Shown here in pieces: positions 2,062 to 50,900 of a stretch of DNA of 64,000 bases. The DNA is from Candidatus Zambryskibacteria bacterium RIFCSPHIGHO2_01_FULL_46_25 (lineage in GTDB: Bacteria > Patescibacteriota > Minisyncoccia > Phycocordibacterales > Zambryskibacteraceae): contig MHVH01000005.1 of the NCBI GenBank assembly GCA_001825155.1, positions 168,501 through 232,500 of the forward strand, in the 5' to 3' direction. The notes below the pieces were generated by a model. That model did not search any database and was not told the DNA's origin. It worked only from the letters and a program-made list of their open reading frames with translations. The position numbers and the translations under genes are program-made. Position 1 is the first letter of the stretch. Every line of letters starts with the position of its first letter.

Positions 2062-2100
2062 TGCCTAACTATATCATTTATGGTCGAATTTTAATACTGG

Positions 2101-3590: not shown

Positions 3591-3610
3591 ATAATCGGAG
3601 TGCGTATAAT

Positions 3611-5827: not shown

Positions 5828-7084
5828 TTGTATGTTGGTTCGACTCCAACGGGATCGTCTATTGAAAAACATCTCAATTTACATTCAGTTTTCTCCTATT
5901 CAGAGTTTGGAAAAGCTTTTAACAAGCTAAAGAAAAAGAACAAATATAGGCAGACATCTGCAGATTTTAATTTAAAAGACCGATATTCCGACAAAAGAAT
6001 TCTAAACGCCCTAGGGAAATTCATACAGAAACATTCGAGCGATCAGGCAAGAGGATTGTATAGAGAAGTAGAAATCTACTCTCTTAGGCCATATAGGGGA
6101 ATTTCGATTTTAAAAAAGAGCGGGAAATATCGCCCACTTCTTGTTCCCTCTCCTTTGGATAGATTGGTATTTTTAACTGCGCTTCCAAGAATAAAAGGGT
6201 TGATTTATAAGAGACTTTTGAAATTTTCTGCTTTAGGGGTAGGCGTTAAGAGTGAGGAGGGATTAAAAATTACCATTGTATCTAATAAAATATTTGAAAA
6301 GGTTAAGCAGAAGAAAACGAGATATGTCCTTGCCTTAGATTTCCAGGACTTTTTCTCAACTATTCACAGAGATAAGCTGCACAGAAAACTTAAAACTATT
6401 TTTTCAAAAGCTGAAGAAAAAGAACTTTTGAAACTTTTAGTCTTGTCGATAAATAATCCTATAGAATCAGATGATCTTTTTAAAGCAAAATTTAAGAATC
6501 TTAATCTCGAGACAAGCGGAATTCCTCAAGGACTAGCGTACTCTCCATTACTAGCTAGTTTCTTTGCTACAAGTCTGGACGCCTTAGTGAGAAGAAACAA
6601 GTCAGTAATCTCGTACCGTTATTTAGATGATATGGTAATCATAGGGCCAAACAAAAGAAATCTTATAAAAATCTATAGAAAAATAAAAAGTTTTTCAGCT
6701 AAATTGGGTCTGAAGCTCCACGACCTTGGCGGAAAGACAAAAATATTACCAGTTATAAATCCCGATGATTCTTTCGATTTTCTCGGCATCTCTTTTTCTA
6801 AATCAGGTAAGCATATTACCAATCAAGCTATTAAGAAGTTTTTAGAAACCATAAAGACAGAAATCCTTACTGGGCGAGGATTAAGAACTTCTCCAGATAA
6901 TATCAAGAGGGTTTTTAAAGAATATGTCACTGGATGGAAACAATACTACTCGGCCATCTGCCCAGAGCACTATAAGGAAATAGCCCCAATTTTAGCAAAT
7001 GAAGTTCGTACTTATATGCTGAAAAAGAAAGCTTGGAAAAGGATATACCTAAGTGATGAAAATTTGTTTAACTTGAAGGAGTGA
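5828..7084 (+). CDS. reverse transcriptase (group II intron/retron-like prokaryotic RT; no intron RNA domains recognised)
   Basis: RT motifs RPLLVPSPLDRLV (RT2), LDFQDFFSTI (RT3), GIPQGLAYSPLLAS (RT4), YRYLDDMVII (RT5, YxDD), and thumb motif YVTGWKQYY; ORF opens with TTG, true start uncertain. Confidence 0.75.
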   Translation: MYVGSTPTGSSIEKHLNLHSVFSYSEFGKAFNKLKKKNKYRQTSADFNLKDRYSDKRILNALGKFIQKHSSDQARGLYREVEIYSLRPYRGISILKKSGKYRPLLVPSPLDRLVFLTALPRIKGLIYKRLLKFSALGVGVKSEEGLKITIVSNKIFEKVKQKKTRYVLALDFQDFFSTIHRDKLHRKLKTIFSKAEEKELLKLLVLSINNPIESDDLFKAKFKNLNLETSGIPQGLAYSPLLASFFATSLDALVRRNKSVISYRYLDDMVIIGPNKRNLIKIYRKIKSFSAKLGLKLHDLGGKTKILPVINPDDSFDFLGISFSKSGKHITNQAIKKFLETIKTEILTGRGLRTSPDNIKRVFKEYVTGWKQYYSAICPEHYKEIAPILANEVRTYMLKKKAWKRIYLSDENLFNLKE

Positions 7085-7191
7085 TATAATAAACTCGCAC
7101 TCAACCGATAATAAGTTGTCTTTTTAAATGGCCGTCTCGGGTCAGCTTAAGGCAACTTAGGTTGAGTGCACCGGGGCGGCCATTTAAGTTT

Positions 7192-8721
7192 ATGAAATAC
7201 TTTTTATACGTTAGAAAATCCACCGATGTTGAAGACAAGCAAGTGCTTTCTATTGAAGCGCAGCTTTCGGAATTGAGAACTATTGCTAAACATGATGAGC
7301 TAGAAATCGTAGAGGAGTTTATAGAAAAGCGAAGTGCAAAAGTTCCAGGCAGATCAATTTTTGAAGAAATGCTCCGCCGGATTGAAAAGGACGAAGCCGA
7401 AGGAATTATTTGCTGGAAAGTAGATAGACTTTCCAGAAATCCTGTAGACAGCGGACGTATCAGTTGGATGCTTCAGCAAAACATCATTCAAAAAGTTATC
7501 ACACACGATAGAGTTTATCTCCCGCAAGACAATGTGCTTATTATGTCTGTAGAGTTCGGGATGGCTAATCAATACATCAGAGATTTGAGTGTAAATACCA
7601 AACGAGGTTTAAGAGCCAAAGCCAGACAAGGTATTTACCCCAGTGTTGCGCCCCTAGGATATTTAAATGATGTAAGGAGTAAGACGATAGTTATAGATAG
7701 GAAGAAAAGCCTTATAGTCCGTAAAGCATTTGAGATGTATGCGGAAAATAAATATAACCAAGAAGATATAGCCAACTTTCTTTTCAAGAATGGTATTCAA
7801 AGCAGATTAATAAGAAGACCAGACGCAACTGGCGGTAAGCCCTTGAAGAGAGACCAGATTAAGTGGATCTTAGAAAGCCCTTTTTATTATGGAAACTTCT
7901 ACTATGCTGGCGAAGTTTGGGAAGGAAAACACAAACCCTTAATTTCAAAAAAGCTCTGGGATAAAGTCCAAGAAGTTTTGAAATTAAGAGGAAGGGTAAA
8001 GAAAGTTAAGACAGAACCTAAAGCATTTTCCGGACTTCTTTATTGTGGAGAATGTGGCTGTTCTATTACTGCCGAAAGACAAAAGGGACATATTTATTAT
8101 CGTTGCACCAAAAAGAAAGGTAAATGCTCACAGCCCTTTACTAGAGAGGAAGTTTTAGACTCCCAACTTTCGGCAATACTAACTTCCTTAGTATTGCCGA
8201 GTGAATGGGCTAAAGAATTAAATAAGATGTTGGATAAAGACGAAGCGGACATCACTCAATCCGCGACGGCGTCCGTCCAAGCTCTGCGGTCAGATGCGAT
8301 GGAGATAAACTCCAAGCTTGCCCGCATTACAGACCTCTTTGTGGAACAAGACATTGAGCGTGGAGAATACCTGGATAGGAAGAAAGCTCTAATGTCTCAA
8401 AAGAAGTCTGTAGAGGAACAAATCCTCTTACTTGAACGAGACGCTGCTAGATGGCTCGAACCGATGCGAGAATGGCTAAAGGTGGCTTCTAGCCTAGCTG
8501 AAGCCGCGCAATCGAACGACCTCCCCTCCAGAAAATCATACCTCCAGAAAATCTTTGGCTCGAACCTCACACTCCACTCACGCGAAGCGCGCGCCGTGCC
8601 CGAAATTCCTTGGGTTTTCATCAGCCAAGCCAAATCCGAATTATCCGAATTGGGCTTTATCCCATCTATGGTGGGTCAGGTGGGAATCGAACCCACATCC
8701 GCAGAGCGGACAACATTTTAA
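7192..8721 (+). CDS. large serine recombinase (resolvase/invertase N-domain, recombinase domain, zinc ribbon); ORF reads through the inverted repeat into tRNA-Leu
   Basis: MKYFLYVRKSTDVEDKQVLSIEAQ with catalytic-Ser context; zinc ribbon CGECGCS...YYRCTKKKGKC; ORF track starts at TTG 7162, ATG at 7192 is preferred; last ~50 aa are encoded by the inverted repeat and tRNA. Confidence 0.8.
   Translation: MKYFLYVRKSTDVEDKQVLSIEAQLSELRTIAKHDELEIVEEFIEKRSAKVPGRSIFEEMLRRIEKDEAEGIICWKVDRLSRNPVDSGRISWMLQQNIIQKVITHDRVYLPQDNVLIMSVEFGMANQYIRDLSVNTKRGLRAKARQGIYPSVAPLGYLNDVRSKTIVIDRKKSLIVRKAFEMYAENKYNQEDIANFLFKNGIQSRLIRRPDATGGKPLKRDQIKWILESPFYYGNFYYAGEVWEGKHKPLISKKLWDKVQEVLKLRGRVKKVKTEPKAFSGLLYCGECGCSITAERQKGHIYYRCTKKKGKCSQPFTREEVLDSQLSAILTSLVLPSEWAKELNKMLDKDEADITQSATASVQALRSDAMEINSKLARITDLFVEQDIERGEYLDRKKALMSQKKSVEEQILLLERDAARWLEPMREWLKVASSLAEAAQSNDLPSRKSYLQKIFGSNLTLHSREARAVPEIPWVFISQAKSELSELGFIPSMVGQVGIEPTSAERTTF
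8581..8672. repeat. right copy of the perfect 92-bp inverted repeat (partner 5331-5422); extended similarity to about 8490
   Basis: Exact reverse complement of 5331-5422; lies within the recombinase 3' coding region and ends at the CCA of tRNA-Leu. Confidence 0.9.
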
Positions 8722-8754
8722 GTGTTGCGCGTATACCTATTCCGCCACTGACCC
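8669..8754 (-). tRNA. tRNA-Leu (anticodon TAA), CCA encoded
   Basis: Manual cloverleaf: acceptor GGGTCAG/CTGACCC, anticodon arm CAACA-CTTAAAA-TGTTG, long variable arm, T-arm GGGTTCGATTCCC. Confidence 0.85.
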
Positions 8755-8756
8755 AG

Positions 8757-8829
8757 AGGCGTAGAGGGGAATCGAACCCCTGCAATAACAGTTTTGCAGA
8801 CTGTCGCGTTACCACTTCGCCACTACGCC
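8757..8829 (-). tRNA. tRNA-Cys (anticodon GCA)
   Basis: Acceptor GGCGTAG/CTACGCC, anticodon loop CTGCAAA, T-arm GGGGTTCGATTCCCC. Confidence 0.8.
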
Positions 8830-8900
8830 AAAACCACTATTACCATACCATAAAATGTTGAAAAACGGTTCGATTAATGAGATACTATGCTTTGTTTGTT

Positions 8901-8973
8901 GCGCCCATAGCTCAGCTGGTAGAGCAGATCCCTCTTAAGGATAAGGTCCAAGGTTCGATCCCTTGTGGGCGCA
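8901..8973 (+). tRNA. tRNA-Lys (anticodon CTT)
   Basis: Acceptor GCGCCCA/TGGGCGC, D-arm GCTCAGCTGGTAGAGC, anticodon loop CTCTTAA, T-arm CAAGGTTCGATCCCTTG. Confidence 0.8.
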
Positions 8974-8977
8974 CAAT

Positions 8978-9059
8978 GCCGAGGTGGCGAAATTGGCAGA
9001 CGCGCCAGCTTTAGGAGCTGGTACCGCAAGGTGTGGAGGTTCAAGTCCTCTCCTCGGCA
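8978..9059 (+). tRNA. tRNA-Leu (anticodon TAG)
   Basis: Acceptor GCCGAGG/CCTCGGC, anticodon arm CCAGC-TTTAGGA-GCTGG, long variable arm, T-arm GGAGGTTCAAGTCCTCT. Confidence 0.85.
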
Positions 9060-9089
9060 CACTGCATTTATGAAGAAAGAAAAATAAAC

Positions 9090-11344: not shown

Positions 11345-11911
11345 TTATATAAGGTCGAAATCCATTCTTAAATATTTATCATTCTCTATTTGATCAGCGA
11401 TGATGTAGAGCATATTCTTCCCTATCCCATAATTGGTCTTGAGGAGTCCGATGACATCTTCGCAATCATAAGGATAAACCCAGACGCTGTCCTGTAGTCT
11501 TAAAAAACCCGACGATTTGAGTATCTCCCTCACCTCGTCTCTCACTTTCTTCATCTTTTCCGGAATATCGAAAATTATGATCCTCCATTTTCTATCCCAT
11601 CTTTTTGGCTTAGGAATTCTATAATCATCCATTTCCCATTGGCGAAGAACCTTTTCTCCATCCGTTGTGAGAAAATATTTCCCACTTTTAAATTCCACCA
11701 ATCCTTTCCTTCTCAGGCGCGAAACCGCGGAGTATATAATATCTTTCTTTCTAGAAGATATTGGAATATCCAGATCAAGAAAATAATTCAGAACACTCGG
11801 CAAAAGGTCCGAGGAGCCCCTTCTGCCTCCAGAAGCTATCGAGACAAGAATCGCCTCCTGAACTTTCGATTTATTTATGGACTTCCTGGCTTTTCTTTCT
11901 AGCTCTCCCAT
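11345..11911 (-). CDS. PaaX-family regulator-like protein (N-terminal wHTH plus C-terminal Cas2-like/PaaX_C domain), paralog 1
   Basis: WRIIIFDIPEKMKKVRDEVREILKSSGFLRLQDSVWVYP matches the PaaX C-domain / Cas2-like pattern; 60-70% identical in the C-terminal half to ORF 22404-22976. Confidence 0.7.
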   Translation of the reverse strand: MGELERKARKSINKSKVQEAILVSIASGGRRGSSDLLPSVLNYFLDLDIPISSRKKDIIYSAVSRLRRKGLVEFKSGKYFLTTDGEKVLRQWEMDDYRIPKPKRWDRKWRIIIFDIPEKMKKVRDEVREILKSSGFLRLQDSVWVYPYDCEDVIGLLKTNYGIGKNMLYIIADQIENDKYLRMDFDLI

Positions 11912-22403: not shown

Positions 22404-22976
22404 ATGGGAAAGCTAGAAGAAATCAGTAAGAAAAATACCCGAAAGACGAGAATCCACGAAACTCTCCTTCTTGCGCTAGTCTCGGGCGGAAGAAGGGGTG
22501 GAGATATACTGATAAGGCAAGTGGTTGATTCACTTCTTAAAACCGACTTCTCCCTCACTTCCCCACGCATAAGCGACACAGTGAAGTCTGCTGCGCAACG
22601 CTTGAGCCGGAGAGGTTTAATAGCATTCGAGGACGGACATTACTCACCCACCGTAAGCGGGAAGAAACTATTGGCAAAATGGCAGAGAACAAATTATAAA
22701 ATCAAAATCCCGAAAAAATGGGACAAGAAGTGGCGGGTGATCATTTTTGACATACCTGAGAAGAAACGGAAAATCCGCGATCACATCAGAGAAATACTTA
22801 TTGCCACCGGGTTCATTCGGTTACAGGACAGCGTATGGGTATACCCATATGACTGTGAGGATGTAATCGGGCTTATAAAAACAGAACTGCGAATCGGTCG
22901 GTATCTTTTGTATATGATCGTCGACCAGATCGAGGACGACCGGTTCCTACGAATGGATTTCGACCTCATTCGCTAA
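22404..22976 (+). CDS. PaaX-family regulator-like protein (wHTH plus Cas2-like C-domain), paralog 2
   Basis: WRVIIFDIPEKKRKIRDHIREILIATGFIRLQDSVWVYPYDCEDVIGL; paralog of 11345-11911. Confidence 0.7.
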   Translation: MGKLEEISKKNTRKTRIHETLLLALVSGGRRGGDILIRQVVDSLLKTDFSLTSPRISDTVKSAAQRLSRRGLIAFEDGHYSPTVSGKKLLAKWQRTNYKIKIPKKWDKKWRVIIFDIPEKKRKIRDHIREILIATGFIRLQDSVWVYPYDCEDVIGLIKTELRIGRYLLYMIVDQIEDDRFLRMDFDLIR

Positions 22977-30603: not shown

Positions 30604-30652
30604 GACCTCACCCGGTCTTACGACCACCCTCTCCTAGACGCAAGGAGAGGGT
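30604..30652 (+). repeat. palindromic mini-repeat (GACCTCACCC...CCCTCTCCT-loop-AGGAGAGGG), copy 1, overlapping the 3' end of the DUF559 gene
   Basis: Identified by eye; four copies in the window share GACCTCACCC plus the hairpin CCCTCTCCT/AGGAGAGGG. Confidence 0.85.
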
Positions 30653-30985
30653 TTGCTTAATTATCCCAATTACTTTATTCAAATTTTTGGTAATTTCATA
30701 ATTTTTTATACGAAGAGTTTGATATCCTAAGTTTTTAAAAAACTTATCACGATTAGAATCATATTCTTTTTGAAATTCATGCGATTTACCATCAATTTCA
30801 ACAATCAACCTGGCTTTAAAACAGTAGAAATCGAGTATGTATCCTCCCATGCTGTGTTGTCTTCTAAATCTGCACCCGAGTTTATTATTTCTAAGTTTTT
30901 GCCACAACATCTCTTCTTCTGGAGTTGATGATTCCCTGAGATTCCGTCTTCGTTCAATAAATTTTCGTTGATTATGTATTTTCAT
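30608..30985 (-). CDS. DUF559 endonuclease-domain protein (Vsr/restriction-endonuclease-like fold)
   Basis: YILDFYCFKARLIVEIDGKSHEF...RDKFFKNLGYQTLRI is the DUF559 pattern. Confidence 0.65.
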   Translation of the reverse strand: MKIHNQRKFIERRRNLRESSTPEEEMLWQKLRNNKLGCRFRRQHSMGGYILDFYCFKARLIVEIDGKSHEFQKEYDSNRDKFFKNLGYQTLRIKNYEITKNLNKVIGIIKQTLSLRLGEGGRKTG

Positions 30986-35731: not shown

Positions 35732-36541
35732 ATGGACATGAATGCAGTACTCTGGACCGCCATCATCATCGCGGGCCTCGCCATCGTGGCGGTACTCGTG
35801 GTGTGGGCGGTGAAGAAAAGCTTCGTCCCCTGGCTCGTCAGGACGCTGATCAAAGAGGGTCTCGTCGCAGGCGTTGAAAGCTGGCGGAAGAGGAGATTGG
35901 CTGCCGCCCAGCCTATCGCGAGACCAACACCGGTGGCTTCCCCAGCCGTCACTACTACCACAACAACAAGAAAAAGGACTCTGGCTTCCAGGACTGGAAC
36001 CATTTCTCTCCTCGTCGGAATCGTCACGTTCGTGCTTCTCCTGGTCTGGATGCGGCAATCGCCGGGCATGATGGCAGCTATTAGCCAGACCGGATGGTGG
36101 CTCGGCACTGGAGCTCTCGCTCTGGCTCTGCTCGCCGGCCTCGCCTATCTGCTCTACAAAGCGGCACAAGCGAAGAAGTGGGGCTTGATCGTTACGGTAG
36201 TCATCGCAGTGATAGTAATCTACGGCTACAACAACTGGTGGACAACGAGCCCATCTTCCGGCACAACGCTGGTTCCAATCGCTCCTATTCGAACCGAAGA
36301 GGTTCTCGCGACTAGGGAGTGGTCAGAGGTCGTCGAGGTACCCATGTGCTATCGGGCAAAGTGGCAAAGGCAAAGTCCAGTAGCATACGAGATAATGACG
36401 CAAACTGGTGAGGTGATCGACTACCCACGAGACCTTGTCGGGACAAAAAAAGTGCGTGGGAAACTCGAAAGCCTCCGGTTCCGTGTCACGGATCCGGAAC
36501 AAGAAGCTGTTGTTATCAAGATCAGCTTCTCCCCTCTTTGA
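35732..36541 (+). CDS. hypothetical polytopic membrane protein (paralog of 36674-37504 in the C-domain)
   Basis: Multiple TM helices; C-terminus ...EWSEVVEVP...VAYEIMT...RFRVTDPEQEAVVIKISFSPL resembles the C-terminus of the next gene. Confidence 0.45.
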   Translation: MDMNAVLWTAIIIAGLAIVAVLVVWAVKKSFVPWLVRTLIKEGLVAGVESWRKRRLAAAQPIARPTPVASPAVTTTTTTRKRTLASRTGTISLLVGIVTFVLLLVWMRQSPGMMAAISQTGWWLGTGALALALLAGLAYLLYKAAQAKKWGLIVTVVIAVIVIYGYNNWWTTSPSSGTTLVPIAPIRTEEVLATREWSEVVEVPMCYRAKWQRQSPVAYEIMTQTGEVIDYPRDLVGTKKVRGKLESLRFRVTDPEQEAVVIKISFSPL

Positions 36542-36563
36542 GGTTTAAGGGAGAAGTATTCAC

Positions 36564-36595
36564 GGGCGCCGCGTTCACGCGGCGCCCTTTTTGAT
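36564..36595 (+). terminator. rho-independent terminator
   Basis: GGGCGCCGCGttcaCGCGGCGCCC followed by TTTTTGATTT. Confidence 0.65.
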
Positions 36596-36673
36596 TTAAA
36601 TTTAAATTGACAATTGTAACGTTAACATGGCATAATTCTCATCGGAAAGTTCTCTCCACTATGTGAGGTTAAC

Positions 36674-37504
36674 ATGAACTGGAATGCTTTCGGGAACGCG
36701 CTCAGGAAGTCGGGCAAATTCGCTCTCAAGCTTGCGGGCATCGGATTGGGCATCTGGATCAGCCTCGTTCTGGCTGACATTCTCACCTTCTACTATGCCT
36801 ACGTGAGCAGCCACAGCGTGCTGTTGGATCGCGGGATGAGTGAGTATGGCTCGAAGATTGTCGCAATAGTATTCGCGGCAATCTTCATGCTCACGGTCCA
36901 TCGCTCCGTGTGGTACATGATTAAGAGAGACCACCAGCGCTGGGTTCTGCTGGTGACGGGCGGAATTCTTGCCTGGTTTGTGATCATGTACGTCGTCTCA
37001 TCGCCGTACTCGAATTCCTCCTTCAACCCGTTCTCTGGCGAACCCCAGGCGAAGTACTACCGCGACGGCGGAGGACAAATCGTCAAGATGCCTCTGGGTG
37101 CCAAGACAGGACCGGAAGGCCAACCACTTCAACTCATCGATCGCAAAACGGCAGAGGAATACAAGGCGCAAGCTGCACTTGTGACACCGGCGCAGAAATC
37201 CGAGACGGTAAAGTCTGTTCGATCCTCCAACCTTACTCTCCTTCGGACAATAGAAATCCTCGTAACAAACGAGTGGTCCGAGAGGGTTCCGATACCACCG
37301 GGTCAAAGGATGAGAACGGACAGACTCGACCCAAATGTTGCCTACGAGGGAAGAGGTCCAAACACTTCGATGCCTATCTCTGTTCCTGTCGGGCTCGAAG
37401 CCAGCGGCAAACGGATACAAATACCCGATGGTGATTGGATCCAGTACCGCGTTACTGACGAGGGTAAACAGGTTAAGCTTCGCATCAACTTCTTCCCCTA
37501 CTAA
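36674..37504 (+). CDS. hypothetical polytopic membrane protein (paralog of 35732-36541)
   Basis: TM-rich N-half; C-terminus ...NEWSERVPIP...VAYEGRG...YRVTDEGKQVKLRINFFPY. Confidence 0.45.
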   Translation: MNWNAFGNALRKSGKFALKLAGIGLGIWISLVLADILTFYYAYVSSHSVLLDRGMSEYGSKIVAIVFAAIFMLTVHRSVWYMIKRDHQRWVLLVTGGILAWFVIMYVVSSPYSNSSFNPFSGEPQAKYYRDGGGQIVKMPLGAKTGPEGQPLQLIDRKTAEEYKAQAALVTPAQKSETVKSVRSSNLTLLRTIEILVTNEWSERVPIPPGQRMRTDRLDPNVAYEGRGPNTSMPISVPVGLEASGKRIQIPDGDWIQYRVTDEGKQVKLRINFFPY

Positions 37505-37516
37505 CAACCAGCACAA

Positions 37517-37555
37517 AGGCGCCTCGCTTCCGCGAGGCGCCCTCTTCTTTTTCTT
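37517..37555. terminator. bidirectional hairpin terminator
   Basis: AGGCGCCTCGCttccGCGAGGCGCCCT followed by CTTCTTTTTCTT. Confidence 0.55.
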
Positions 37556-37567
37556 ATCGTTTCTTTC

Positions 37568-37840
37568 TTACAGAAGTCCCGGATAATTCGGCTTGTCGAT
37601 GCCGAACGTGCCTAAGATGAGATTGATGATGCCGTAGGCGGATATCATGATAAGCATACCCACTAGCCCCCACAAGATTTTTTTCTTGCCGTCTTCGCGC
37701 TTGGTATCGGTAGTTTCGGAATTGATGAACTGGACTATGCCCCAGAAGAAGTATAGTGTCGCCACGGCGAAAAGCAGTATGATAATCGGATTCAGGATGA
37801 ACTGATTGACCTTGTTGAGAAGCTCGATAATCATCGCCAC
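37568..37840 (-). CDS. small two-TM pilin-like protein (VirB2/TrbC-like, T4SS-pilin-type), array member 1
   Basis: 90 aa; two hydrophobic helices separated by a K/D/E loop; conserved LLFxxxxLYFFWGIVQFI ... ILWGLVGMLIMI. Confidence 0.45.
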   Translation of the reverse strand: MAMIIELLNKVNQFILNPIIILLFAVATLYFFWGIVQFINSETTDTKREDGKKKILWGLVGMLIMISAYGIINLILGTFGIDKPNYPGLL

Positions 37841-37846
37841 CCAATA

Positions 37847-38194
37847 CTAGAGACCGGGAACCGTCGGTACGGCTTGAGGAGTAGACTCCGGATTGACGCC
37901 GACGGCATTGCCGATGAAGCGGACAAGACCCCAGACAGCAACCATTACGAAGAGGGCTACAAGGCCCCAGATCATGAGACGCTGGCCTTCCTTATGAGCA
38001 TCTTCGCCAGAAGCGGAGAAGATGAATCGAACCAAGCCCCAGAAGAAGACGAGGAGTGCGACCGCCACCACGATAGGAAGGGCGATACCCACCAGTCTGC
38101 CGATGGAGCGCAGAAGCGTCTCGAGATTGCCGAGATTCTGAGCGAAAGCGACTGCCGGAAAAGTTGCTAAAGCGATTAATGCGAATTTTTTCAT
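37847..38194 (-). CDS. pilin-like two-TM protein with signal peptide, array member 2
   Basis: Signal peptide MKKFALIALATFPAVAFAQ; LLVFFWGLVRFI ... MIWGLVALFVMVAVWGLVRFI. Confidence 0.5.
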   Translation of the reverse strand: MKKFALIALATFPAVAFAQNLGNLETLLRSIGRLVGIALPIVVAVALLVFFWGLVRFIFSASGEDAHKEGQRLMIWGLVALFVMVAVWGLVRFIGNAVGVNPESTPQAVPTVPGL

Positions 38195-38304
38195 TTAATT
38201 AACTATTTACTATCTAATATCTACTAATAACTTACGTATTTAATGATACGTCAATAGCGGGAAATCGCAACCGATCAATCCCCACCCCATGGGGATTGAT
38301 CTCC

Positions 38305-38661
38305 CTAGGGTCTTGGGATTTGTGGCAAGTCCACGGTGTAGCCGGAGATATTCAATTCCTTCTGTATAAATCTCACAAGTCCCCAGACCGTTATCATCAC
38401 GAAAAGAGCCACAAGACCCCAGACCATAAGGCCCTTACTCTTCTTCACTTCCGCTTCATCCCCGGCCTTCGAAATAAACTTGACTAGGCCCCAGAAGAAA
38501 ACAAGCAAGGCGGCAGCTACAACGATAGGAATAATGTTTTGTATCAGGTCGCCTATGCGATCGATCCATCTACCTGTGGTCCCGAATGTCGTTTGCGCGC
38601 TCGCTATTGCCGGAAAAACCGACAAGGTAATCACCAATAATTTCATTAATTTATTTTTCAT
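38305..38661 (-). CDS. pilin-like two-TM protein with signal peptide, array member 3
   Basis: Signal peptide ...FPAIASAQ; LLVFFWGLVKFI ... MVWGLVALFVMITVWGLVRFI. Confidence 0.5.
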   Translation of the reverse strand: MKNKLMKLLVITLSVFPAIASAQTTFGTTGRWIDRIGDLIQNIIPIVVAAALLVFFWGLVKFISKAGDEAEVKKSKGLMVWGLVALFVMITVWGLVRFIQKELNISGYTVDLPQIPRP

Positions 38662-38684
38662 ACTTTAATTATAACTTGATTATT

Positions 38685-38957
38685 TTAACGCCTCAAGGGT
38701 ATTGAGGACCCCTGGCCTATGTTAAGTTCCTTGCCTATGAACTTCACAAGCCCCCAGACACTTATCATAACAAAGAGGCTTATGAGCCCCCAAACCATGA
38801 AATTTTTGCCTTCTTCCACAGCCTTCTCATCCCCGCCTACGCGGGCAATGAATTTTACCAAGCCCCAGAAGAAGACAAGCATGGCGGCAATAATCAGCAC
38901 TCCGACAATATCCGCCACCAGTCCGCCCGCCCCTTTAATTAAGACTTGCAAGTTCAT
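38685..38957 (-). CDS. pilin-like two-TM protein, array member 4
   Basis: MLVFFWGLVKFIARVGGDEKAVEEGKNFMVWGLISLFVMISVWGLVKFI. Confidence 0.5.
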   Translation of the reverse strand: MNLQVLIKGAGGLVADIVGVLIIAAMLVFFWGLVKFIARVGGDEKAVEEGKNFMVWGLISLFVMISVWGLVKFIGKELNIGQGSSIPLRR

Positions 38958-38960
38958 GGA

Positions 38961-39236
38961 TTATTTATTGGTAGGCAGAGTTGGCACGGCGAAATTTCTG
39001 AATCCAAGCTCGCCGAACGCAAACCGGAGAATACCGAAAATCGATACCATCACGAATATGCCTATGAGCCCCCATATCATGAGACTGCGCCCTTCGGCAT
39101 GAGTCTTGGCATCGCCCGACTTGGCTATGAAGCCGACCAAACCCTTGAAGAAGACGAGGAGTGCCAGCGCCACCATAATGGTAATAAGCGGATTGATGAG
39201 GTTTATGAATTTTCCCACTAGTTCTGTGAAATTCAT
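38961..39236 (-). CDS. pilin-like two-TM protein, array member 5
   Basis: LLVFFKGLVGFIAKSGDAKTHAEGRSLMIWGLIGIFVMVSIFGILRF. Confidence 0.5.
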   Translation of the reverse strand: MNFTELVGKFINLINPLITIMVALALLVFFKGLVGFIAKSGDAKTHAEGRSLMIWGLIGIFVMVSIFGILRFAFGELGFRNFAVPTLPTNK

Positions 39237-39237
39237 T

Positions 39238-39657
39238 TTAGATAGGACATGTGCCGCCTGTTACCTGGGCTATGGTCTTGCACACTACGGTAGCAAGCAT
39301 CCACGAACCCAGGAGCACGCCTGTGCCTACTGCTGTATATAGAAGCGCTTTGTGAGCTTTCTCAAGTTCTGCCGGCTTGCCCTGGGCCATGACATATTTG
39401 AAGCCGACGAAGATGAAGGCCATCACGGCGAGAACGGCTCCGATAGGCAGAAGAATGTCATTGATGATGGTCTTTAATAAAACAAAGAGGTTGTCTGTGC
39501 CACTCTTTAAAGGATTGGGGAGAGAAGTGCAGTTTGAATTTTGACCCTCTCCTTCGCACGTATTGTCACCTTCACCTTGAGCGTAAACAGTTGCTACCCC
39601 AAAAGATAGAATTATTAAGAATGAGAAAGCTGAAGCAAGAATTGTCTTTTTCATCAT
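39238..39657 (-). CDS. pilin-like secreted two-TM protein (Cys-rich N-region), array member 6
   Basis: Signal peptide then GEGDNTCEGEGQNSNC...; two C-terminal TM helices of the VirB2/TrbC-like type. Confidence 0.45.
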   Translation of the reverse strand: MMKKTILASAFSFLIILSFGVATVYAQGEGDNTCEGEGQNSNCTSLPNPLKSGTDNLFVLLKTIINDILLPIGAVLAVMAFIFVGFKYVMAQGKPAELEKAHKALLYTAVGTGVLLGSWMLATVVCKTIAQVTGGTCPI

Positions 39658-39980
39658 TTAAGAATTATGAAATTCGATTTAAGCAAAACCGTACTTATAG
39701 TATAGACCACAAGCCAGGCGGCCAGTATCCACACATAGCCCCACGCGACCTTGCTAAGCATGGTAACGGCATTCTTGTACTCCGTCTCGCTTCCTCGAGA
39801 CATGACCATCTTGAAGCCGGCGTAGGCGAAGGCCGCCACGGCGATAAGGGTGGAGAGTATAAACAGGTCGTTTATAAGCACTCTGGCCAGAGTTATTAAG
39901 CTTGCGTAACCGCATTCCGGAAGTTCGGTCGTCTTCACCCCATCGCAGACTATTAAACTTTGCCAGCCTGGCATAGCCAT
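39654..39980 (-). CDS. small two-TM membrane protein, array member 7
   Basis: 108 aa with two hydrophobic helices; overlaps the previous gene by 4 nt. Confidence 0.4.
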   Translation of the reverse strand: MAMPGWQSLIVCDGVKTTELPECGYASLITLARVLINDLFILSTLIAVAAFAYAGFKMVMSRGSETEYKNAVTMLSKVAWGYVWILAAWLVVYTISTVLLKSNFIILK

Positions 39981-39989
39981 ATTTGTAAA

Positions 39990-41273
39990 TTATTTTATTA
40001 AGTTATCCAAGCTTCTGCTCGCGGCGCCGAGAGCTTCCGAAGTTCTCGCCCGTCCACTCGTGACGGCATTTACCATCTCGCCGAAAATGTTTCCGGTGGA
40101 AACATTTTCGGGGTCAAGCCAGCCACGAGCCTGCAAGGCCGATTCGTAGAAGACCGAGAGCGCGGAATCGCTCTGCCGCCCCGAGAGAATATCGCGGCGG
40201 GCCGGCGGCAGGCCGAGACTCTTCGACAACGGCTCACTTATGTCCCTAGACACAAGTATAAGCGCTGCCCTGAGCGCGGCGGAAGCATTCCTCGTGCCGC
40301 GGGTAATAGAGACCGCGTAGAGTCGACCAAAGGTAAGTTTCTTGCCCGACACTCTCGACTGCGGCACTGGTGCGATGCCAAGATTCAAATTCGGGTTCTT
40401 GTTCCGGAGAGCGGAGAGCTCGCTCGCGAAACCCAGATAGTAGACCGCATCCCCGCTCGCGAAGTGTGTTTCTGCGGAAGGCAGAATCCTGTTCCAACTG
40501 TAATACGCTTTCGCCGGATTCGAGAATTGGGTGTAGAAATCGAGCGCCGATTCGCCGGGCGCGACCGGCAACCCGTAATTATTTGAGAGAGCGGAGCGCA
40601 GATTCGCGTTGATGGACTCCGTCACTGGCGTCCCGGCCTGGAGAAGAAGGAGGGAAAGAATTTCTTTGAAGTTCGGAATGTTTCTGGTCTCGCCGAGAGC
40701 TATAACCGACTGCGCCAGATTACCAGCCGGGTCTTTCTTCGTGAGTTTGAGAGCCATGGGATATACCTCATCCCAGTAAGCGATAGGTCTTGCCTCGCCC
40801 GCCGCCGAGAGCAAATCGCGGTTGTAATAGAGAACCAGCGGGTCTACCGCGAGCGGTAAGCCGTATACACCCTCTTTCGTCAGAAAAAGTTCTCCTTCTT
40901 CCACAAACGAGTTCCCGAAATCGCGCTCACCCACGCTGTCGTAAGGAATATAGATGAGCTTAGGTTTATTCTTGAGAAATCGCTCCTGGGTAACGACGAG
41001 AAGGTCGGGACCGGCGCCGGAGGCAAGCGCCTCGGTAAATTCCTGGTCGATAGAATCCGCGGACTTCTCCACGTAGCGAATAGTGAGCGACTTGTCGATA
41101 TTCGGGACGGCGGTGTCAATAATTTGCGAGATTGCTTCGGAAGGCAAGTCCCCCCAGACCGTAACCGTCGCTTCCTGGCTCGACGACCCTCCGCGATAGA
41201 GGGCAAAGACCATGACCGCCAATAGTATGAAGAGTCCGAAAACCGACAGGAGTATTATTTGAAACTTGGACAT
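39990..41273 (-). CDS. extracellular solute-binding protein (ABC-transporter SBP family 1-like), membrane-anchored
   Basis: N-terminal TM anchor then a periplasmic-binding-protein-like fold; start preferred at MSKFQ (ATG 41271-41273) over the track's 41321. Confidence 0.6.
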   Translation of the reverse strand: MSKFQIILLSVFGLFILLAVMVFALYRGGSSSQEATVTVWGDLPSEAISQIIDTAVPNIDKSLTIRYVEKSADSIDQEFTEALASGAGPDLLVVTQERFLKNKPKLIYIPYDSVGERDFGNSFVEEGELFLTKEGVYGLPLAVDPLVLYYNRDLLSAAGEARPIAYWDEVYPMALKLTKKDPAGNLAQSVIALGETRNIPNFKEILSLLLLQAGTPVTESINANLRSALSNNYGLPVAPGESALDFYTQFSNPAKAYYSWNRILPSAETHFASGDAVYYLGFASELSALRNKNPNLNLGIAPVPQSRVSGKKLTFGRLYAVSITRGTRNASAALRAALILVSRDISEPLSKSLGLPPARRDILSGRQSDSALSVFYESALQARGWLDPENVSTGNIFGEMVNAVTSGRARTSEALGAASRSLDNLIK

Positions 41274-41297: not shown

Positions 41298-41332
41298 CAA
41301 TTTACAATTCACAATTTCCAATTTTCAATCAA
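41298..41332. repeat. AT-rich CAATTT-type tandem repeat block (family shared with 51195-51228)
   Basis: CAATTTACAATTCACAATTTCCAATTTTCAATCAA versus GAATTTTCAATTTTCAATTTGCAATTTTCAATCAA. Confidence 0.8.
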
Positions 41333-41606
41333 TAGCTGGTTGCGAAGATTTCAGCATTCTCAGCCAGTGCTTGGTCTCTTGTATCTCCTTCTTGCAGATG
41401 AATATCTTATTGATGAAATCTTTCCGTGAGCTTGCGCCGTTCGCTTCCATATAATTCGCACCCACGCTCGTCGCTGCCCGGACAAGCTGATTTACAATCG
41501 GAGAAATAATATTGTCCTGCCTTACCTTCCGGCATAAAACTATGACTGATTCACCAAATTTCGCCGTTCTTTCTTCCAAGTCGTACTTCTTTCCCGTTTG
41601 AGTCAT
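41325..41606 (-). CDS. four-helix-bundle protein (TIGR02436; 23S rRNA IVS-protein family)
   Basis: ...RAATSVGANYMEANGASSRKDFINKIFICKKEIQETKHWLRM matches the family consensus. Confidence 0.65.
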   Translation of the reverse strand: MTQTGKKYDLEERTAKFGESVIVLCRKVRQDNIISPIVNQLVRAATSVGANYMEANGASSRKDFINKIFICKKEIQETKHWLRMLKSSQPAID

Positions 41607-41666: not shown

Positions 41667-44135
41667 TTACAGGCAAATTAGCGAAGCTATCGAGTCGCCT
41701 TCGCGGAGTTTCATGATGCGGACGCCTTGGGTTTGGCGGCCGAGGATGGGAACCTCTTTGAGGTCGACACGTACCACCTGGCTCTTCTTGGAGATAGCTA
41801 TAACCTCCTCTTCCGCGTCGGAGACAATCTGCGAGGTAATGACGGGACCTGTTTTCGGCGTGACTTTCGACGTGAGGATACCGGAGCCGCCTCTGCCTTG
41901 CGCCTTATACTCGGCGAGCTTTGTCCTCTTACCGTAGCCGTTGCCGGAGATGACCAGGAGATGTCCGGAAGCAGAATTCTTCGTTATCACGTGCGCTCCC
42001 ACAACCGCGTCATTCTTCTCGAGCTTGATGCCTCGCACTCCGCCAGCCGCGCGCCCCATCTCTCGGAGCGCCGAATCCTTGAAGCGGATGGACTGCCCTT
42101 TTCTCGTGACTATGGAAATATCGTCCCCGCTCTCCACAAGTTCCGCCGATACGAGCCTGTCTCCCGGTGCGAGACGGATGGCGATAATGCCGGATGAGCG
42201 GACATCGGTAAAAGATTTTGCCGAAACTTTCTTCACCGTGCCCATCTCGGTCACCATGAGAAGCGAGCCGGAACTTTTTGCATCCTTCGTACGCAAATCT
42301 TTCGGCATCGGCAGAATCGAAGTCACCTTCTCTTCGGCGGAAAGCGCAATGAAGTTCATTATTGACTTGCCGCGAGTGGCGCGCTTGCCTTCCGGCAGGT
42401 CATACATCTTAATCTGATAAGCCTTGCCCTTGTCGGTGAAGAAAAGAAGGTCGTCATGGGTTGATGCCGTGAGAAAATTGGTCACAAAATCCTCTTCCTT
42501 GGTATCCAGGTCAACGACGCCTATGCCTCCCCTCTTCTGCCTCTTGTATTCGTCCGGATTGGTGCGCTTGATATAGCCACCGGAAGTAAGAACCAGAGCA
42601 TTGTCTTCTTCCGCGACCAAGTCCTCGACGGAAAGGTTCTTTACCGCGCCCTTGACCACGCGGGTCCTGCGTTCGTCGCCAAACTTCTCTCGTACGGCGA
42701 TAAGTTCAGACTTGATCACTTTTAGGATTTTTGCTGGCGATGCCAGCAACTCCTTCATCTCCTGGATGAAAGCCTGCACCTCGGTGAGCTCGTCCTCAAT
42801 CTTCTTTCTCTCGAGACCGGCGAGCTTCTGCAAACGCATTTCGAGAATGGCGTTGGCCTGGATTTCCGAGAACTTAAAACGCTTGATGAGATTCTCCCGC
42901 GCATCATCTATGGTCTTCGAAGCGCGGATAATCTTTATCACCTCTTCTATATGGTCGAGCGCCTTGGATAGGCCGAGCAGAACGTGTTCACGCTCCTCCG
43001 CTTTGACAAGGTCGAAGAGTGCTCGACGCCTGACCACCATCTCTCTGTGCTTAAGGAACTCGACCAGCATGCTCTTGAGCGAGAGCGTTTGTGGCACGCC
43101 GTCCACAAGTGCCACGATGTTGAAGTGGAACGTATCCTCAAGTTGAGTGTGTTTGTAGAGAGCGTTTAAAACCTTCTGTGGCTGAGAACCGGCCTTCAAA
43201 TCGACGACAATGCGAATGTCCTTGGCGGACTCGTCGCGCATACCCTTAATACCCTCAATCTTCTTCTCTCGGTGCAGGTCGGCAATCTTCTCTATAAGAT
43301 CGGCCTTATTGACTCGATAAGGAATTTCGGTAATGACAATCTGATAATTCCCTGCCTTGTTCTCGGTAATGTCCGCAACACCTCGAGCAACCACGCCGCC
43401 GCGGCCGGTGGCGTACGCGTGGTGAATGTCTTTCTCATTGAAAATGATTCCCCCCGTCGGGAAATCCGGCCCCTTCACGAATTCCAAAAGGTCTTCCGTT
43501 GCCGCGTCCGGATTGTCGGCGAGATGCATGACGGCATCGACCACCTCAGTCAGATTGTGTGGTGGGATGTTCGTGGCCATGCCAACAGCGATGCCCAAGG
43601 TGCCGTTCAAAAGCAGGTTCGGCACGACAGTCGGCAGGACAACCGGCTCAGATTTTGTGCCGTCATAATTCGGCTTGAAGTCAACCGTCTCCTTCTCGAT
43701 ATCTCGAAGCATTTCTCCGGCGACACGACTCATCTTCGCCTCGGTATATCGATAAGCCGCCGCACTGTCACCATCGATACTGCCGAAATTTCCTTGACCT
43801 ATGACAAGCGGATAACGCATGGAGAAGTCCTGCGCCATCTTGACCATCGCTTCGTAGACAGATGAGTCACCGTGCGGGTGATACTTGCCGAGCACATCTC
43901 CAACGATAGTAGCGGACTTTCTGGTCTTTGCGGTGGCGGAGAGACCGATCTCATTCATGGCGTAGAGGATGCGGCGATGCACCGGCTTCAGCCCGTCACG
44001 TACGTCGGGCAGAGCGCGGTCGGTAATGACAGACATCGCGTAGTCGATGAAGCTCTCCTTCATCTCACTCGTAATGGCGCGGGAAACTATTCTGCTTGCC
44101 CCGAGCTCTGTCGAGGGGTCTTTTTTATTGTCCAT
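41667..44135 (-). CDS. gyrA: DNA gyrase subunit A
   Basis: [28 protein letters not shown] active-site Tyr region; C-terminal beta-pinwheel repeats; 822 aa. Confidence 0.9.
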
Positions 44136-48215: not shown

Positions 48216-48824
48216 ATGCCTCCTGAGAATTTACAACCCGCCCTTCGACAAGCTCAGGGCAAGCCAACCGAAAATTTCTGGAAAGAACTTTTCAAGCTCG
48301 TTTTGCTCGCGGTCGTCATAGTTATCCCCTTCCGACTTTATGTCGCTCAGCCCTTCATCGTCGATGGGCTTTCCATGTATCCGACCTTCGACAACGGACA
48401 CTATCTCATCATTGACGAAGTCTCGTATCGCTTCCGAGAGCCAGCGCGCGGCGATGTACTTGTTTTTAAGGCACCACCAAACCCAGAAAAGTATTACATC
48501 AAGCGCCTCATAGGCTTTCCCGGCGAGACGATAATGATAAACGATGGTCAAGTAACGATAACCAATAAAGAAAATCCGGACGGATTCAAATTGGCCGAGC
48601 CTTATGTCAAATTTCCCAAGGACGAGGTCCTGACCATAATTCTCGAAGAGAACGAGTACTTCGTCATGGGTGACAACCGCGCTTCGAGCTCGGATTCCCG
48701 CGTCTGGGGGCCGTTGCCGAAGGAAAATATTATAGGCCGTCCGGTCATGCGATTCTTTCCTCCGGCGCTATTCCCCGGAGACATCTCGCACTTTGAGGCA
48801 AGGCTTAACGCAAACGACGAGTGA
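48216..48824 (+). CDS. lepB: signal peptidase I
   Basis: Catalytic Ser GLSMYPTF, Lys box YIKRLIG, GDNRASSSDSRVWG. Confidence 0.85.
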   Translation: MPPENLQPALRQAQGKPTENFWKELFKLVLLAVVIVIPFRLYVAQPFIVDGLSMYPTFDNGHYLIIDEVSYRFREPARGDVLVFKAPPNPEKYYIKRLIGFPGETIMINDGQVTITNKENPDGFKLAEPYVKFPKDEVLTIILEENEYFVMGDNRASSSDSRVWGPLPKENIIGRPVMRFFPPALFPGDISHFEARLNANDE

Positions 48825-50139: not shown

Positions 50140-50900
50140 GCACCTTTTTTGTTTGCTTGTGTTCTGCAACACCGAGTGTTGCAAACAATTATAAAGTATC
50201 AATATATTCCAGTTCTTCTTTAAGGAGTTTTGCTGGACTAGTCTTCACGAATTGATGATATTCTTCTTTATCTTTAAATCTATCGGTAAGAATAGCGGGA
50301 AGTAGTAAATTACCCCACCGATTTTCATTTACCATATCTTGATAGCTAGACCAGTAATAGTGATTTTCTTTACTCAGCCATTTTGTAATTTCTCTGGGAT
50401 TTCTGTGAATATAGGTAGATAGGTGAAGAAGTTGCCTATCGTCTCCGACATGTACTGCTTTGTAAGGACCCTGAAATACGTGTCCAGACTTATCGTATTT
50501 GGTGTTGTAGTATTTGCTATAAGCATTCAACACTCTTTGCATGTAATTTGAAATTCCACCTTCTTTCAATTCCTTGATTATCAGATGGAAATGATTTGGC
50601 ATTATGCAAAAAGCAATCAATTCGATTGTGCGCGTATCAATCACCTCTTGAACATAATCCTGCAACACCGAGTGTTGCATAAAATCTCCCATAAGTTTGC
50701 TAATATTCTTAATAATGGTCGGGGATTGGAGATACAAGATTAAGAAAAGGAATCTGTAATAATCTCGGGTGTCATGAAAGATTATTTGTTTGTTAATTCC
50801 CCTATTGAAAAGATGGTAATGTTCTCCAGGCGCAATAATGATATTTCTCATAGAGCCTATTATACATGCAACACTCGGTGTTGCAGGTTGTAGACAATTT
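50140..50900. mobile_element. IS200/IS605-like RAYT (REP-associated tyrosine transposase) unit with flanking REP hairpins
   Basis: Hairpin TGCAACACCGAGTGTTGCA at 50158-50186 and 50866-50890, with a third copy inside the ORF at 50649-50676. Confidence 0.7.
50189..50851 (-). CDS. tnpA: Y1 HUH transposase (RAYT / IS200-like TnpA)
   Basis: HYHLFNRG...; HUH motif MPNHFHLII; catalytic Tyr region NAYSKYYN. Confidence 0.75.
   Translation of the reverse strand: MRNIIIAPGEHYHLFNRGINKQIIFHDTRDYYRFLFLILYLQSPTIIKNISKLMGDFMQHSVLQDYVQEVIDTRTIELIAFCIMPNHFHLIIKELKEGGISNYMQRVLNAYSKYYNTKYDKSGHVFQGPYKAVHVGDDRQLLHLSTYIHRNPREITKWLSKENHYYWSSYQDMVNENRWGNLLLPAILTDRFKDKEEYHQFVKTSPAKLLKEELEYIDTL

Follow-up and report, generated by a model that had tools for sequence, protein, structure and literature searches.

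Tandem arrays of VirB2-type pilin genes are a described feature of Patescibacteria. A search of 3,035 genomes of the phylum with the profiles PF04956 and PF18895 yielded 441 such arrays with 2-11 pilin genes in 383 assemblies; the mean identity between array paralogs was 25%, and pilin genes were situated near virB4 in only 1,135 of 1,948 assemblies (PMC12102498, Microbial Genomics 2025). In Ca. Southlakia epibionticum, a series of pilin genes within the cluster of its type IV secretion system (T4SS) is essential (PMC10633639, Cell 2023), and genes for T4SS pilins belong to the highly expressed ones when Paceibacterales are grown in co-culture (PMC10936435). A 2025 review calls a pilus in Patescibacteria an attractive yet unproven possibility (PMC12857230). 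Here, we describe an array of seven pilin-like genes, p1-p7, preceded by a gene for a membrane-anchored solute-binding protein (SBP), in 64 kb of DNA from Ca. Zambryskibacteria bacterium RIFCSPHIGHO2_01_FULL_46_25 (assembly GCA_001825155.1, contig MHVH01000005.1, positions 168,501 to 232,500). This whole stretch is referred to as the window, and all coordinates are given within it unless another locus is named. Its relatives are Ca. Zambryskibacteria (class Paceibacteria).

The array is a further member of the published class of Patescibacteria pilin arrays. What is new beyond published work is the fixed operon led by the SBP gene, the old positional classes into which the paralogs fall, the fusions of core pilins, and a promoter in an internal spacer that is accompanied by a 9-mer resembling a DnaA box. 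The locus is probably a chromosomal pilin operon of a T4SS of the Patescibacteria type (monoderm, MPF-FATA-like), the products of which would be assembled by VirB4 into a short pilus or tube, with the SBP serving glycan recognition.

The SBP-led pilin operon

The array (37568-39980) and the SBP gene (39990-41273) lie on the minus strand. The pilin genes are named by their order of transcription.

39990-41273, minus strand: SBP of the MalE/oligosaccharide type, 427 amino acids (aa); first gene of the operon
39654-39980, minus strand: p1 pilin, 108 aa; divergent class, without signal peptide; PF18895 24.7 bits, just under the gathering score
39238-39657, minus strand: p2 pilin, 139 aa; with signal peptide; PF18895 34.3 bits, PF04956 22.8 bits (below gathering score)
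38961-39236, minus strand: p3 core pilin, 91 aa; without signal peptide; PF18895 24.1 bits
38685-38957, minus strand: p4 core pilin, 90 aa; without signal peptide; PF18895 34.7 bits
38305-38661, minus strand: p5 core pilin, 118 aa; with signal peptide; PF18895 37.5 bits
37847-38194, minus strand: p6 pilin, 115 aa; with signal peptide; PF18895 35.9 bits; first gene after the internal promoter
37568-37840, minus strand: p7 pilin, 90 aa; without signal peptide; PF18895 32.4 bits, NF045849 31.9 bits; last gene of the array

The seven consecutive minus-strand open reading frames (ORFs) of 90-139 aa had been recognized in an original prediction made from the sequence letters, and their coordinates are confirmed. 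All seven products match the Pfam family PF18895 (T4SS_pilin) with 24.1-37.5 bits; five lie above its gathering score of 26.6, at 32.4-37.5 bits, and p3 and p1 fall just below it. NCBIfam model NF045849, a pilin-like conjugal transfer protein of Mycoplasma integrative and conjugative elements, gave sub-cutoff matches for 7/7 proteins, and p2 was the sole match to PF04956 (TrbC/VirB2; E 1e-4, gathering score 27.9). The likeness to VirB2/TrbC-type pilins that the original prediction had seen is thus borne out by PF18895 for all seven proteins and by the sub-threshold PF04956 match for p2. The profile search that it had proposed returned a T4SS pilin family rather than the holin-like or DUF (domain of unknown function) family that it had named as the contrary outcome; since Pfam, PHROGs and PADLOC gave no such match, a holin-like, DUF-only or other unrelated family is very improbable. 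With regard to pilins of type IV pili (T4P) and type II secretion systems (T2SS), the translations contain no class III signal peptide (G/FTLIE), no T4P family of Pfam was matched, and the proteins have two helices, not one.

A family hidden Markov model (HMM) built from the window array and related arrays picks just these seven from the 346 window ORFs of at least 50 aa, even at E<=10; the cluster is therefore no chance grouping, and beyond the seven there are no other pilin ORFs in the 64-kb window. The top score of all members against this HMM belongs to p6. The family comprises 13,820 cluster representatives (50% identity) at E<=1e-3, and the closest pilin homologs stem from Ca. Zambryskibacteria, Ca. 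Wolfebacteria and 'Minisyncoccia', some of them being named 'pilin' by NCBI. When the positional classes defined below were compared by hhalign, they proved homologous to one another at 97-100% (p1 to the other classes at 97-99.6%). When the reference was a profile made from seven proteins of alphaproteobacterial plasmids that are annotated as VirB2/TrbC family (Ti-plasmid VirB2 relatives), p2 reached 72% (E 3e-5) and p1 62%. Judged by these comparisons, p2 appears to be the most TrbC/VirB2-like member, and p1 and p2 seem to bridge the canonical VirB2/TrbC family and the 'WGL' core.

Each of p1-p7 contains two hydrophobic helices with a charged loop between them, in which K+R >= D+E (alignment, hydropathy). 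An AlphaFold2 model of p5, based on 108 homologs, is a helical hairpin with helices 29-64 and 69-102 and a mean pLDDT (the model's confidence score) of 79. Sec-type signal peptides, judged by eye from the translations, are present in p2, p5 and p6 only, where they end VYA-Q, ASA-Q and AFA-Q, respectively. Of the signal-peptide, helix, loop and helix architecture that had been predicted for every member, the two helices and the charged loop therefore hold for 7/7 and the signal peptide for these three. The window encodes a signal peptidase I (48216-48824), 8 kb from the operon, which is likely the processing enzyme for p2, p5 and p6; Peptidase_S26 genes also occur upstream of gyrA in the related loci L002, L003, L096 and L097. 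The conserved core LLVFFWGLV...WGL had likewise been ascribed to the whole array. It is found in p3-p7, the core class motif of p3 being 'FF(W/K)GLV...WGL', and p1 and p2 diverge from it. Pairwise identity among the seven paralogs is 23-61%, with p4/p5 as the closest pair (61%); p1 and p2 form a divergent pair, 23-33% identical to the remaining members. p1 carries an N-terminal Cys-X10-Cys loop ('LIVCDG...C'), and p2 has Cys pairs at both its N- and C-terminal ends. For p7, an alternative start at the ATG at 37834 is possible.

The order of the operon is SBP-p1-p2-core pilins-spacer-p6-p7. The gap between the SBP stop and the p1 start is 9 nt, the p1 stop overlaps the p2 ATG (ATGA), and the remaining gaps measure 1-23 nt apart from one spacer of ~110-116 nt. 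The SBP gene and p1 share one reading frame, with TAA-TTT-ACA-AAT-ATG between them (39978-39992). This frame sharing, together with the p1/p2 overlap, suggests translational coupling along the operon.

Related loci were collected with six aligned SBPs as query by scanning one genome per species; of 386 relatives, the best 80 loci were kept, which represent Zambryski-, Campbell- and Wolfebacteria along with generic Paceibacterota. The pilin HMM was applied to those with at least 3.5 kb downstream of the SBP (n=52), and in 52/52 the SBP gene is directly followed by at least two pilin genes: 32 loci have six, 8 have five, another 8 have seven, and arrays of four and of two genes occur in 2 loci each. 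The comparison of paralog copy number across related genomes, which had been suggested at the outset, thus gives 2-7 genes with a mode of 6. At least one pilin gene is present in 73/73 loci with at least 400 bp downstream of the SBP, and gyrA lies upstream of the SBP in 73/80 loci. Six loci found through pilin homologs all read gyrA, an optional small gene, SBP and 4-6 pilin-family genes, and eight loci with precomputed Pfam annotations display the order gyrA-SBP-pilins. Because of the tight packing and this invariance, we regard the SBP and pilin genes as one operon. What had originally been described as a lone anchored SBP downstream of the array is indeed an anchored SBP; by transcription, the operon begins with its gene, which is invariant and no bystander.

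The SBP scores 48.1 bits against SBP_bac_8 and 46.8 bits against SBP_bac_1 (Pfam). Its start at the ATG at 41273 is backed by a database protein of 427 aa with 100% identity (P0123). In the AlphaFold2 model (pLDDT 91.7), an N-terminal transmembrane helix (residues 3-27) is followed by a two-lobe SBP domain, for which Foldseek finds sucrose/maltotriose-, mannotriose-, maltodextrin- and cellotetraose-binding proteins as best PDB matches (E ~1e-22, TM-score 0.66-0.83). The sequence matches are also to oligosaccharide-binding proteins, and the closest named homologs, 75-77% identical, come from Zambryskibacteria. The protein has no lipobox. Its anchor helix is conserved like the globular domain, with F4, F12 and F23 present in at least 95% of 85 sequences; a helix that served only as a tether would not usually be conserved to this degree, which points to possible contacts inside the membrane. 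BPD_transp and ABC_tran genes, which would indicate an ATP-binding cassette (ABC) importer, were found neither in the window ORFs scanned against Pfam (all of at least 300 aa and most of at least 180 aa) nor within 10 kb in the eight Pfam-annotated relatives. We infer that the SBP serves the apparatus as a receptor for glycans, as an adhesin or as a sensor.

Contig MHVZ01000034.1 of assembly GCA_001823915.1, a second assembly of the same population, matches the window at 99.9% identity, and this value also applies to the covered part of the array (37739-39980). The copy of p5 is identical. There is a break within the SBP gene of that assembly, where ~160 nt (window 40640-40802) are replaced by ~56 nt (3322-3379 of that locus, L001). 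The SBP-pilin linkage is hidden in the GCA_001823915.1 record because the SBP gene is not called there.

Positional classes, core fusions and the spacer promoter

Cross-genome best matches assign p1 and p2 without exception to the first and the second array gene, respectively, p6 to the penultimate and p7 to the last. For p1 this was the case in 5/5 genomes compared; p6 is penultimate in nearly all arrays and p7 is last in most. p3-p5 make up an interchangeable core group with a copy number of 2-4 between genomes. The median best-hit identity of orthologs is 53.5% for p7, the best-conserved class, followed by 47.8% for p6 (up to 69%) and 38-39% for p1 and p2, the least conserved. To judge from these matches, the paralogs appear to be old positional classes (p1, p2, core, p6, p7) and not recent copies.

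A library search also uncovered single proteins with two or three pilin domains, such as the two-domain protein P0253 and the following set.

L096 10001-11005; L097 10001-11089; also P0241-P0251 and P0384-P0395: three-pilin-domain fusions without internal stop

The fused domains are joined by Gly/Pro-rich linkers, and the fusion homologs are 42-65% identical across Paceibacterota and Taylorbacteria. Two long contigs show the complete order gyrA - methyltransferase - SBP - p1 - p2 - fused triple - spacer - p6 - p7. The fused triple takes the core position, and core pilins are therefore probably made together, for one assembly and in fixed stoichiometry (Rosetta-stone evidence). Such natural three-unit fusions argue for a heteromeric assembly.

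The spacer between p5 and p6 holds the features listed here.

38273-38301, minus strand: perfect inverted repeat / RNA hairpin GATCAATCCCCAUggGUGGGGAUUGAUC, 13-bp stem, 4 nt past the p5 stop
38243-38284, minus strand: putative internal promoter for p6-p7, from a promoter scan and the comparison of spacers
38276-38284, minus strand: window 9-mer TGGGGATTG, 3 mismatches to TTATCCACA, 5 nt before the -35 element
38265-38270, minus strand: -35 element TTGCGA, followed by 16 nt to the -10 element
38243-38248, minus strand: -10 element TATCAT of the internal promoter

The hairpin that had been noticed between two members of the array is real, and the spacer as a whole folds at -35.7 kcal/mol (z = -3.1). 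For comparison, arrays with at least five detected pilin genes were considered; a gap of 70-200 nt is present in 53/58 of these, and the 53 were used together with the window's own spacer. A strong hairpin (<= -10 kcal/mol) occurs in only 13/53 homologous spacers, which rules out a conserved terminator hairpin. In 52/58 arrays, the widest gap between any two genes is the one ahead of the p6-class gene. A promoter of the form TTGnnn-16/18-TAnnAT is found in 36/53 spacers (shuffles: mean 3.8, maximum 10). In 26/53, a 9-mer with at most two mismatches to TTATCCACA, the consensus DnaA box, lies within 14 nt upstream of the -35 element, and 25/26 of these 9-mers end 5-6 nt before it (shuffles: mean 0.2, maximum 2). 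Boxes with at most one mismatch are present in 20/53 spacers, ~10x the background of the loci, and the 9-mer is perfect in eight. Box orientation is clade-dependent; one clade has TTATCCACA, the other GGGGATAAC/GTGGATAAC (spacers L008-L087). In the window, the box forms the 3' arm of the hairpin, at the position that corresponds to the conserved 9-mer, and recurs in inverted form as the 5' arm. The spacer thus appears to carry a conserved sigma-70-type promoter with a putative DnaA-box-like operator. On the single ground of its position behind this promoter, p6 becomes a candidate major subunit.

In Paceibacteria, virB4 usually resides beside dnaA and dnaN (PMC12102498), and the DnaA-box resemblance in the spacer is therefore worth testing. 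Note that a replication origin in the spacer is ruled out: 15 DnaA-like boxes were found in the window against 11.6 expected, and the curve of its cumulative GC skew does not turn around 38 kb. A box at the SBP promoter is likewise ruled out, since 4/77 upstream regions correspond to the background rate. Many spacers of the Zambryski clade (L010, L016, L018, L021, L022, L025, L059 and others) additionally contain ATACC-N4-5-GGTAT just past the -10 element; the window has ACGTAT-cattaa-ATACGT instead (38232-38250), which overlaps the -10 element. The repeat at or after the -10 element could be an operator or a stem in the 5' untranslated region.

Genomic surroundings

In agreement with the original prediction, neither VirB4 nor VirD4 is encoded nearby. 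The Pfam scan of the window ORFs (all of at least 300 aa and most of at least 180 aa) gave other assignments or no family match, and it yielded no VirB4, VirD4 or VirB6. Phmmer searches employed proteins of pCF10, i.e., PrgJ (VirB4), PcfC (VirD4), PrgH, PrgI, PrgL and PrgK. With PrgJ and PcfC, no VirB4 or VirD4 was detected in the window or in 86 related loci, a result of one distant query each, run without a positive control, that may miss a divergent VirB4; the whole pCF10 set produced one weak PrgL match in L042. Because no T4SS machinery lies near the operon, we can only infer a dependence on VirB4. In the published survey, 22/25 Zambryskibacteria assemblies in Table S1 are scored VirB4-positive, and one VirB4-positive assembly, GCA_001824135.1, shares its name with the operon-bearing locus L011 (Table S1, PMC12102498). 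GCA_001823915.1 is absent from this table.

Downstream, transcription ends at the following element.

37518-37541, no strand assigned: bidirectional intrinsic terminator GGCGCCTCGC-TTCC-GCGAGGCGCC, from a terminator scan; G+C-rich, fold -31 kcal/mol, z = -4.4

It closes both the pilin operon and the convergent membrane-protein genes at 35732-37504. The latter had been proposed as two paralogous genes upstream of the array. Their paralogy is confined to a common C-terminal stretch of ~88 aa (38% identity, E 5e-8) in the proteins encoded at 35732-36541 and 36674-37504, which have no family assignment; by orientation they are convergent neighbours past the terminator. The assignment of a nearby gene product as SPFH-like holds. 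Phmmer homologs of the SPFH protein and the two membrane proteins were recovered in 7, 5 and 1 of the 80 loci, respectively, which rules out these three as members of the module at the sequence level. Fast-evolving analogues of similar size are seen downstream in some loci.

Between gyrA and the SBP gene, the window contains a gene (41325-41606) for a 93-aa 23S-rRNA-intervening-sequence protein (PF05635), of which phmmer detected no homolog in 80 related loci. Several Pfam-annotated relatives have a small S-adenosylmethionine-dependent methyltransferase gene in this place.

The wider neighbourhood encodes DnaE, ThrRS, SMC, RNase R, PBP2, MreBC, GyrA (41667-44135) and FtsA/FtsZ, and includes a few mobile elements. 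Among these housekeeping genes are an IS200-like Y1 transposase (50189-50851), an IS1595-family transposase (55957-56775) and a DUF559 endonuclease-like gene (30608-30985). Two paralogs of ~190 aa (11345-11911 and 22404-22976) share a domain of the PaaX_M / Cas2-like type, and a CRISPR array was not noticed. The segment 1-9060 is low in GC (34-40% against ~48-52% elsewhere). Its genes encode glycosyltransferases (349-4891), a protein with DUF5672, a reverse transcriptase of the group II intron type (5828-7084) and a serine recombinase of the large type (7162-8721). The segment adjoins four tRNA genes (8669-9060) and is probably an integrated island.

Alternative explanations and comparison with known systems

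If the locus is a pilin operon of a Patescibacteria-type T4SS, its products would insert in the membrane with both ends outside, three via Sec signal peptides and four with short N-terminal tails. A VirB4-family ATPase encoded elsewhere would pull the subunits from the membrane, and these would build a pilus or tube of short length. Separate and stronger transcription would make p6, alone or along with p7, the source of the bulk subunit. A minor complex of fixed stoichiometry, placed at the tip or the base or acting when assembly starts, may consist of p1, p2 and the core trio. Held by its conserved helix, the SBP would bind a glycan as an adhesin, sensor or cargo receptor and not as part of an ABC importer.

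Several observations weigh against such an assignment. gyrA is as syntenic as the SBP gene (73/80 loci), and adjacency alone is therefore no proof of a functional link between SBP and pilins; linkage is at the same time the sole ground for the role given to the SBP. By hhalign, the core, p6 and p7 classes reach 1-3% against the VirB2/TrbC profile, which is not significant. A comparison of the family profile with all PDB chain sequences returned no VirB2, TraA or TrbC, the best hits being chance matches, and a tblastn search with p2 against 72,556 plasmids gave no match. Unlike canonical VirB2, 4/7 proteins have no signal peptide. T4SS machinery was detected neither in the window nor within 10 kb of the operon in relatives. 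Finally, no pilus made of such proteins has been seen in any Patescibacterium, where it is called a possibility (PMC12857230).

In a first alternative, the pilin-like proteins stay in the membrane and form a hetero-oligomeric complex with the SBP, be it a channel, a receptor platform or an inner-membrane accessory of a T4SS, that serves the uptake or sensing of a glycan from the host; the complex would be homologous to pilins without building any filament. We consider this unlikely, even though it accommodates the constant linkage of the SBP and the conservation of its anchor helix, and even though neither an ATPase nor another T4SS gene is found in or near the operon. A three-unit core fusion fits fixed stoichiometry more easily than it fits a homopolymeric fibre; however, minor-pilin complexes of fixed stoichiometry coexist with fibres elsewhere, namely in T2SS and type IV pili. 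The separately promoted, well-conserved p6-p7 pair rather fits a high-copy structural subunit, and the family is related to conjugative pilin-like proteins. Observations of a pilus are lacking for monoderm T4SSs (PMC12857230). Members of the same family are encoded inside the virB4 cluster in Saccharibacteria and in some Paceibacteria (RAAC4_OD1_1, Table S3, PMC12102498).

A second alternative, proposed for Patescibacteria by the authors of the array survey (PMC12102498), is that the paralogs are alternative major pilins, kept as a variation cassette for evading host defences or matching host surfaces. The divergence of the paralogs (23-61%) and the variation of the core copies between 2 and 4 per genome are in line with this proposal, which we nevertheless regard as quite improbable here. 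Each position has its own orthologs across genomes with SBPs of only 40-60% identity, and the succession p1-p2-...-p6-p7 does not change. This makes the paralogs old and specialised and not the outcome of recent diversification. They belong to one operon with suggested translational coupling, core units are fused in some lineages and hence made together, and the second assembly of the population is 99.9% identical over 37739-39980. It is very improbable, lastly, that the likeness to pilins is superficial and the seven are small membrane proteins of unrelated kinds, be it holin-like, bacteriocin-immunity or DUF-only: they are small two-helix proteins for which fold searches are non-specific and sequence matches to solved pilins are lacking, yet PF18895 and NF045849 agree on all seven, p1-p7 have no match in PHROGs (E<=0.01), to Pfam holins or to PADLOC defence-system models, and the context is housekeeping without a prophage.

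The reading of the locus as a pilin operon can be extended to a bolder proposal, which we put forward tentatively and with the odds against it. The SBP would be the obligate partner of the pilins, a host-glycan receptor or adhesin whose conserved membrane helix links recognition to a pilus of heteromeric make-up: p1, p2 and the core at its tip or base, p6/p7 as its shaft. The DnaA-box-like operator would tie the bulk subunit to the replication cycle. If this were true, the essential T4SS of Patescibacteria would be an organelle for contact or uptake, gated by glycans and timed by the cell cycle, and no conjugation machine, and the operator would parallel the location of the virB4 cluster beside dnaA.

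The only Patescibacterium that is genetically tractable requires the T4SS and its pilin array for epibiotic life. The locus described here leaves that picture unchanged and provides handles for Paceibacteria, the largest class. Its invariant lead gene encodes a protein whose predicted oligosaccharide binding can be assayed. Should the SBP prove to be a component of the apparatus, a role in host recognition or uptake would be favoured over conjugation.

The closest described systems are the arrays of Patescibacteria themselves, i.e., SEML1_0006-0019 of Ca. Southlakia epibionticum ML1, the 'Sec-secreted array' of TM7x and the 441 arrays of the published survey (PMC12102498). They share with the present locus the family PF18895, the phylum, the chromosomal location, the lack of a relaxase and the tandem arrangement of 2-11 divergent two-helix pilins; the published paralog identity is ~25% compared with 23-61% here. 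In contrast to these arrays, the operon lies outside the virB4 cluster and next to gyrA, is always led by an anchored SBP of the sugar type, and displays fixed positional classes and a putative internal promoter. The words 'solute', 'substrate-binding' and 'gyrA' are absent from the main text of PMC12102498 and from those of its supplements that were covered; the search for the SBP arrangement in the literature was confined to this paper.

With the canonical VirB2/TrbC pilins (Agrobacterium T-pilin, RP4 TrbC, F TraA), the seven proteins have in common the small two-helix hairpin, the charged loop, the signal peptides (3/7) and a weak similarity of p2 and p1. They differ in that PF04956 is not matched at its gathering score, virB1, virB3 and virB4 are not adjacent, four members have no leader peptide, the host is monoderm, and seven paralogs are present, not one gene. 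The archaeal Ced/Ted DNA-import pili (Aeropyrum pernix pilin, 8dfu) likewise employ a VirB2-like pilin in an organism that lacks an outer membrane, and may serve import, not export. Here, however, identity is 13% only and the fold match is non-specific, and Ced pilins are encoded together with CedA and CedB and without an SBP partner. Tandem sets of VirB2-like genes are also known from bacteria with an obligate host association, in the VirB2 families of Bartonella, Anaplasma and Ehrlichia. While these are read as antigenic or host-range variants, positional orthology and fusions point to joint use of the paralogs in the operon studied here. As regards the lead gene, a parallel is offered by pheromone-binding SBPs of conjugative plasmids from enterococci (PrgZ/TraC of pCF10), which are signal receptors and no dedicated nutrient importers. 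There, too, a protein of the SBP fold is genetically tied to a monoderm T4SS. PrgZ and TraC are OppA-like peptide binders, whereas the protein encoded here is of the MalE-like oligosaccharide type, is anchored by a transmembrane helix and is specified by the first gene of the pilin operon itself.

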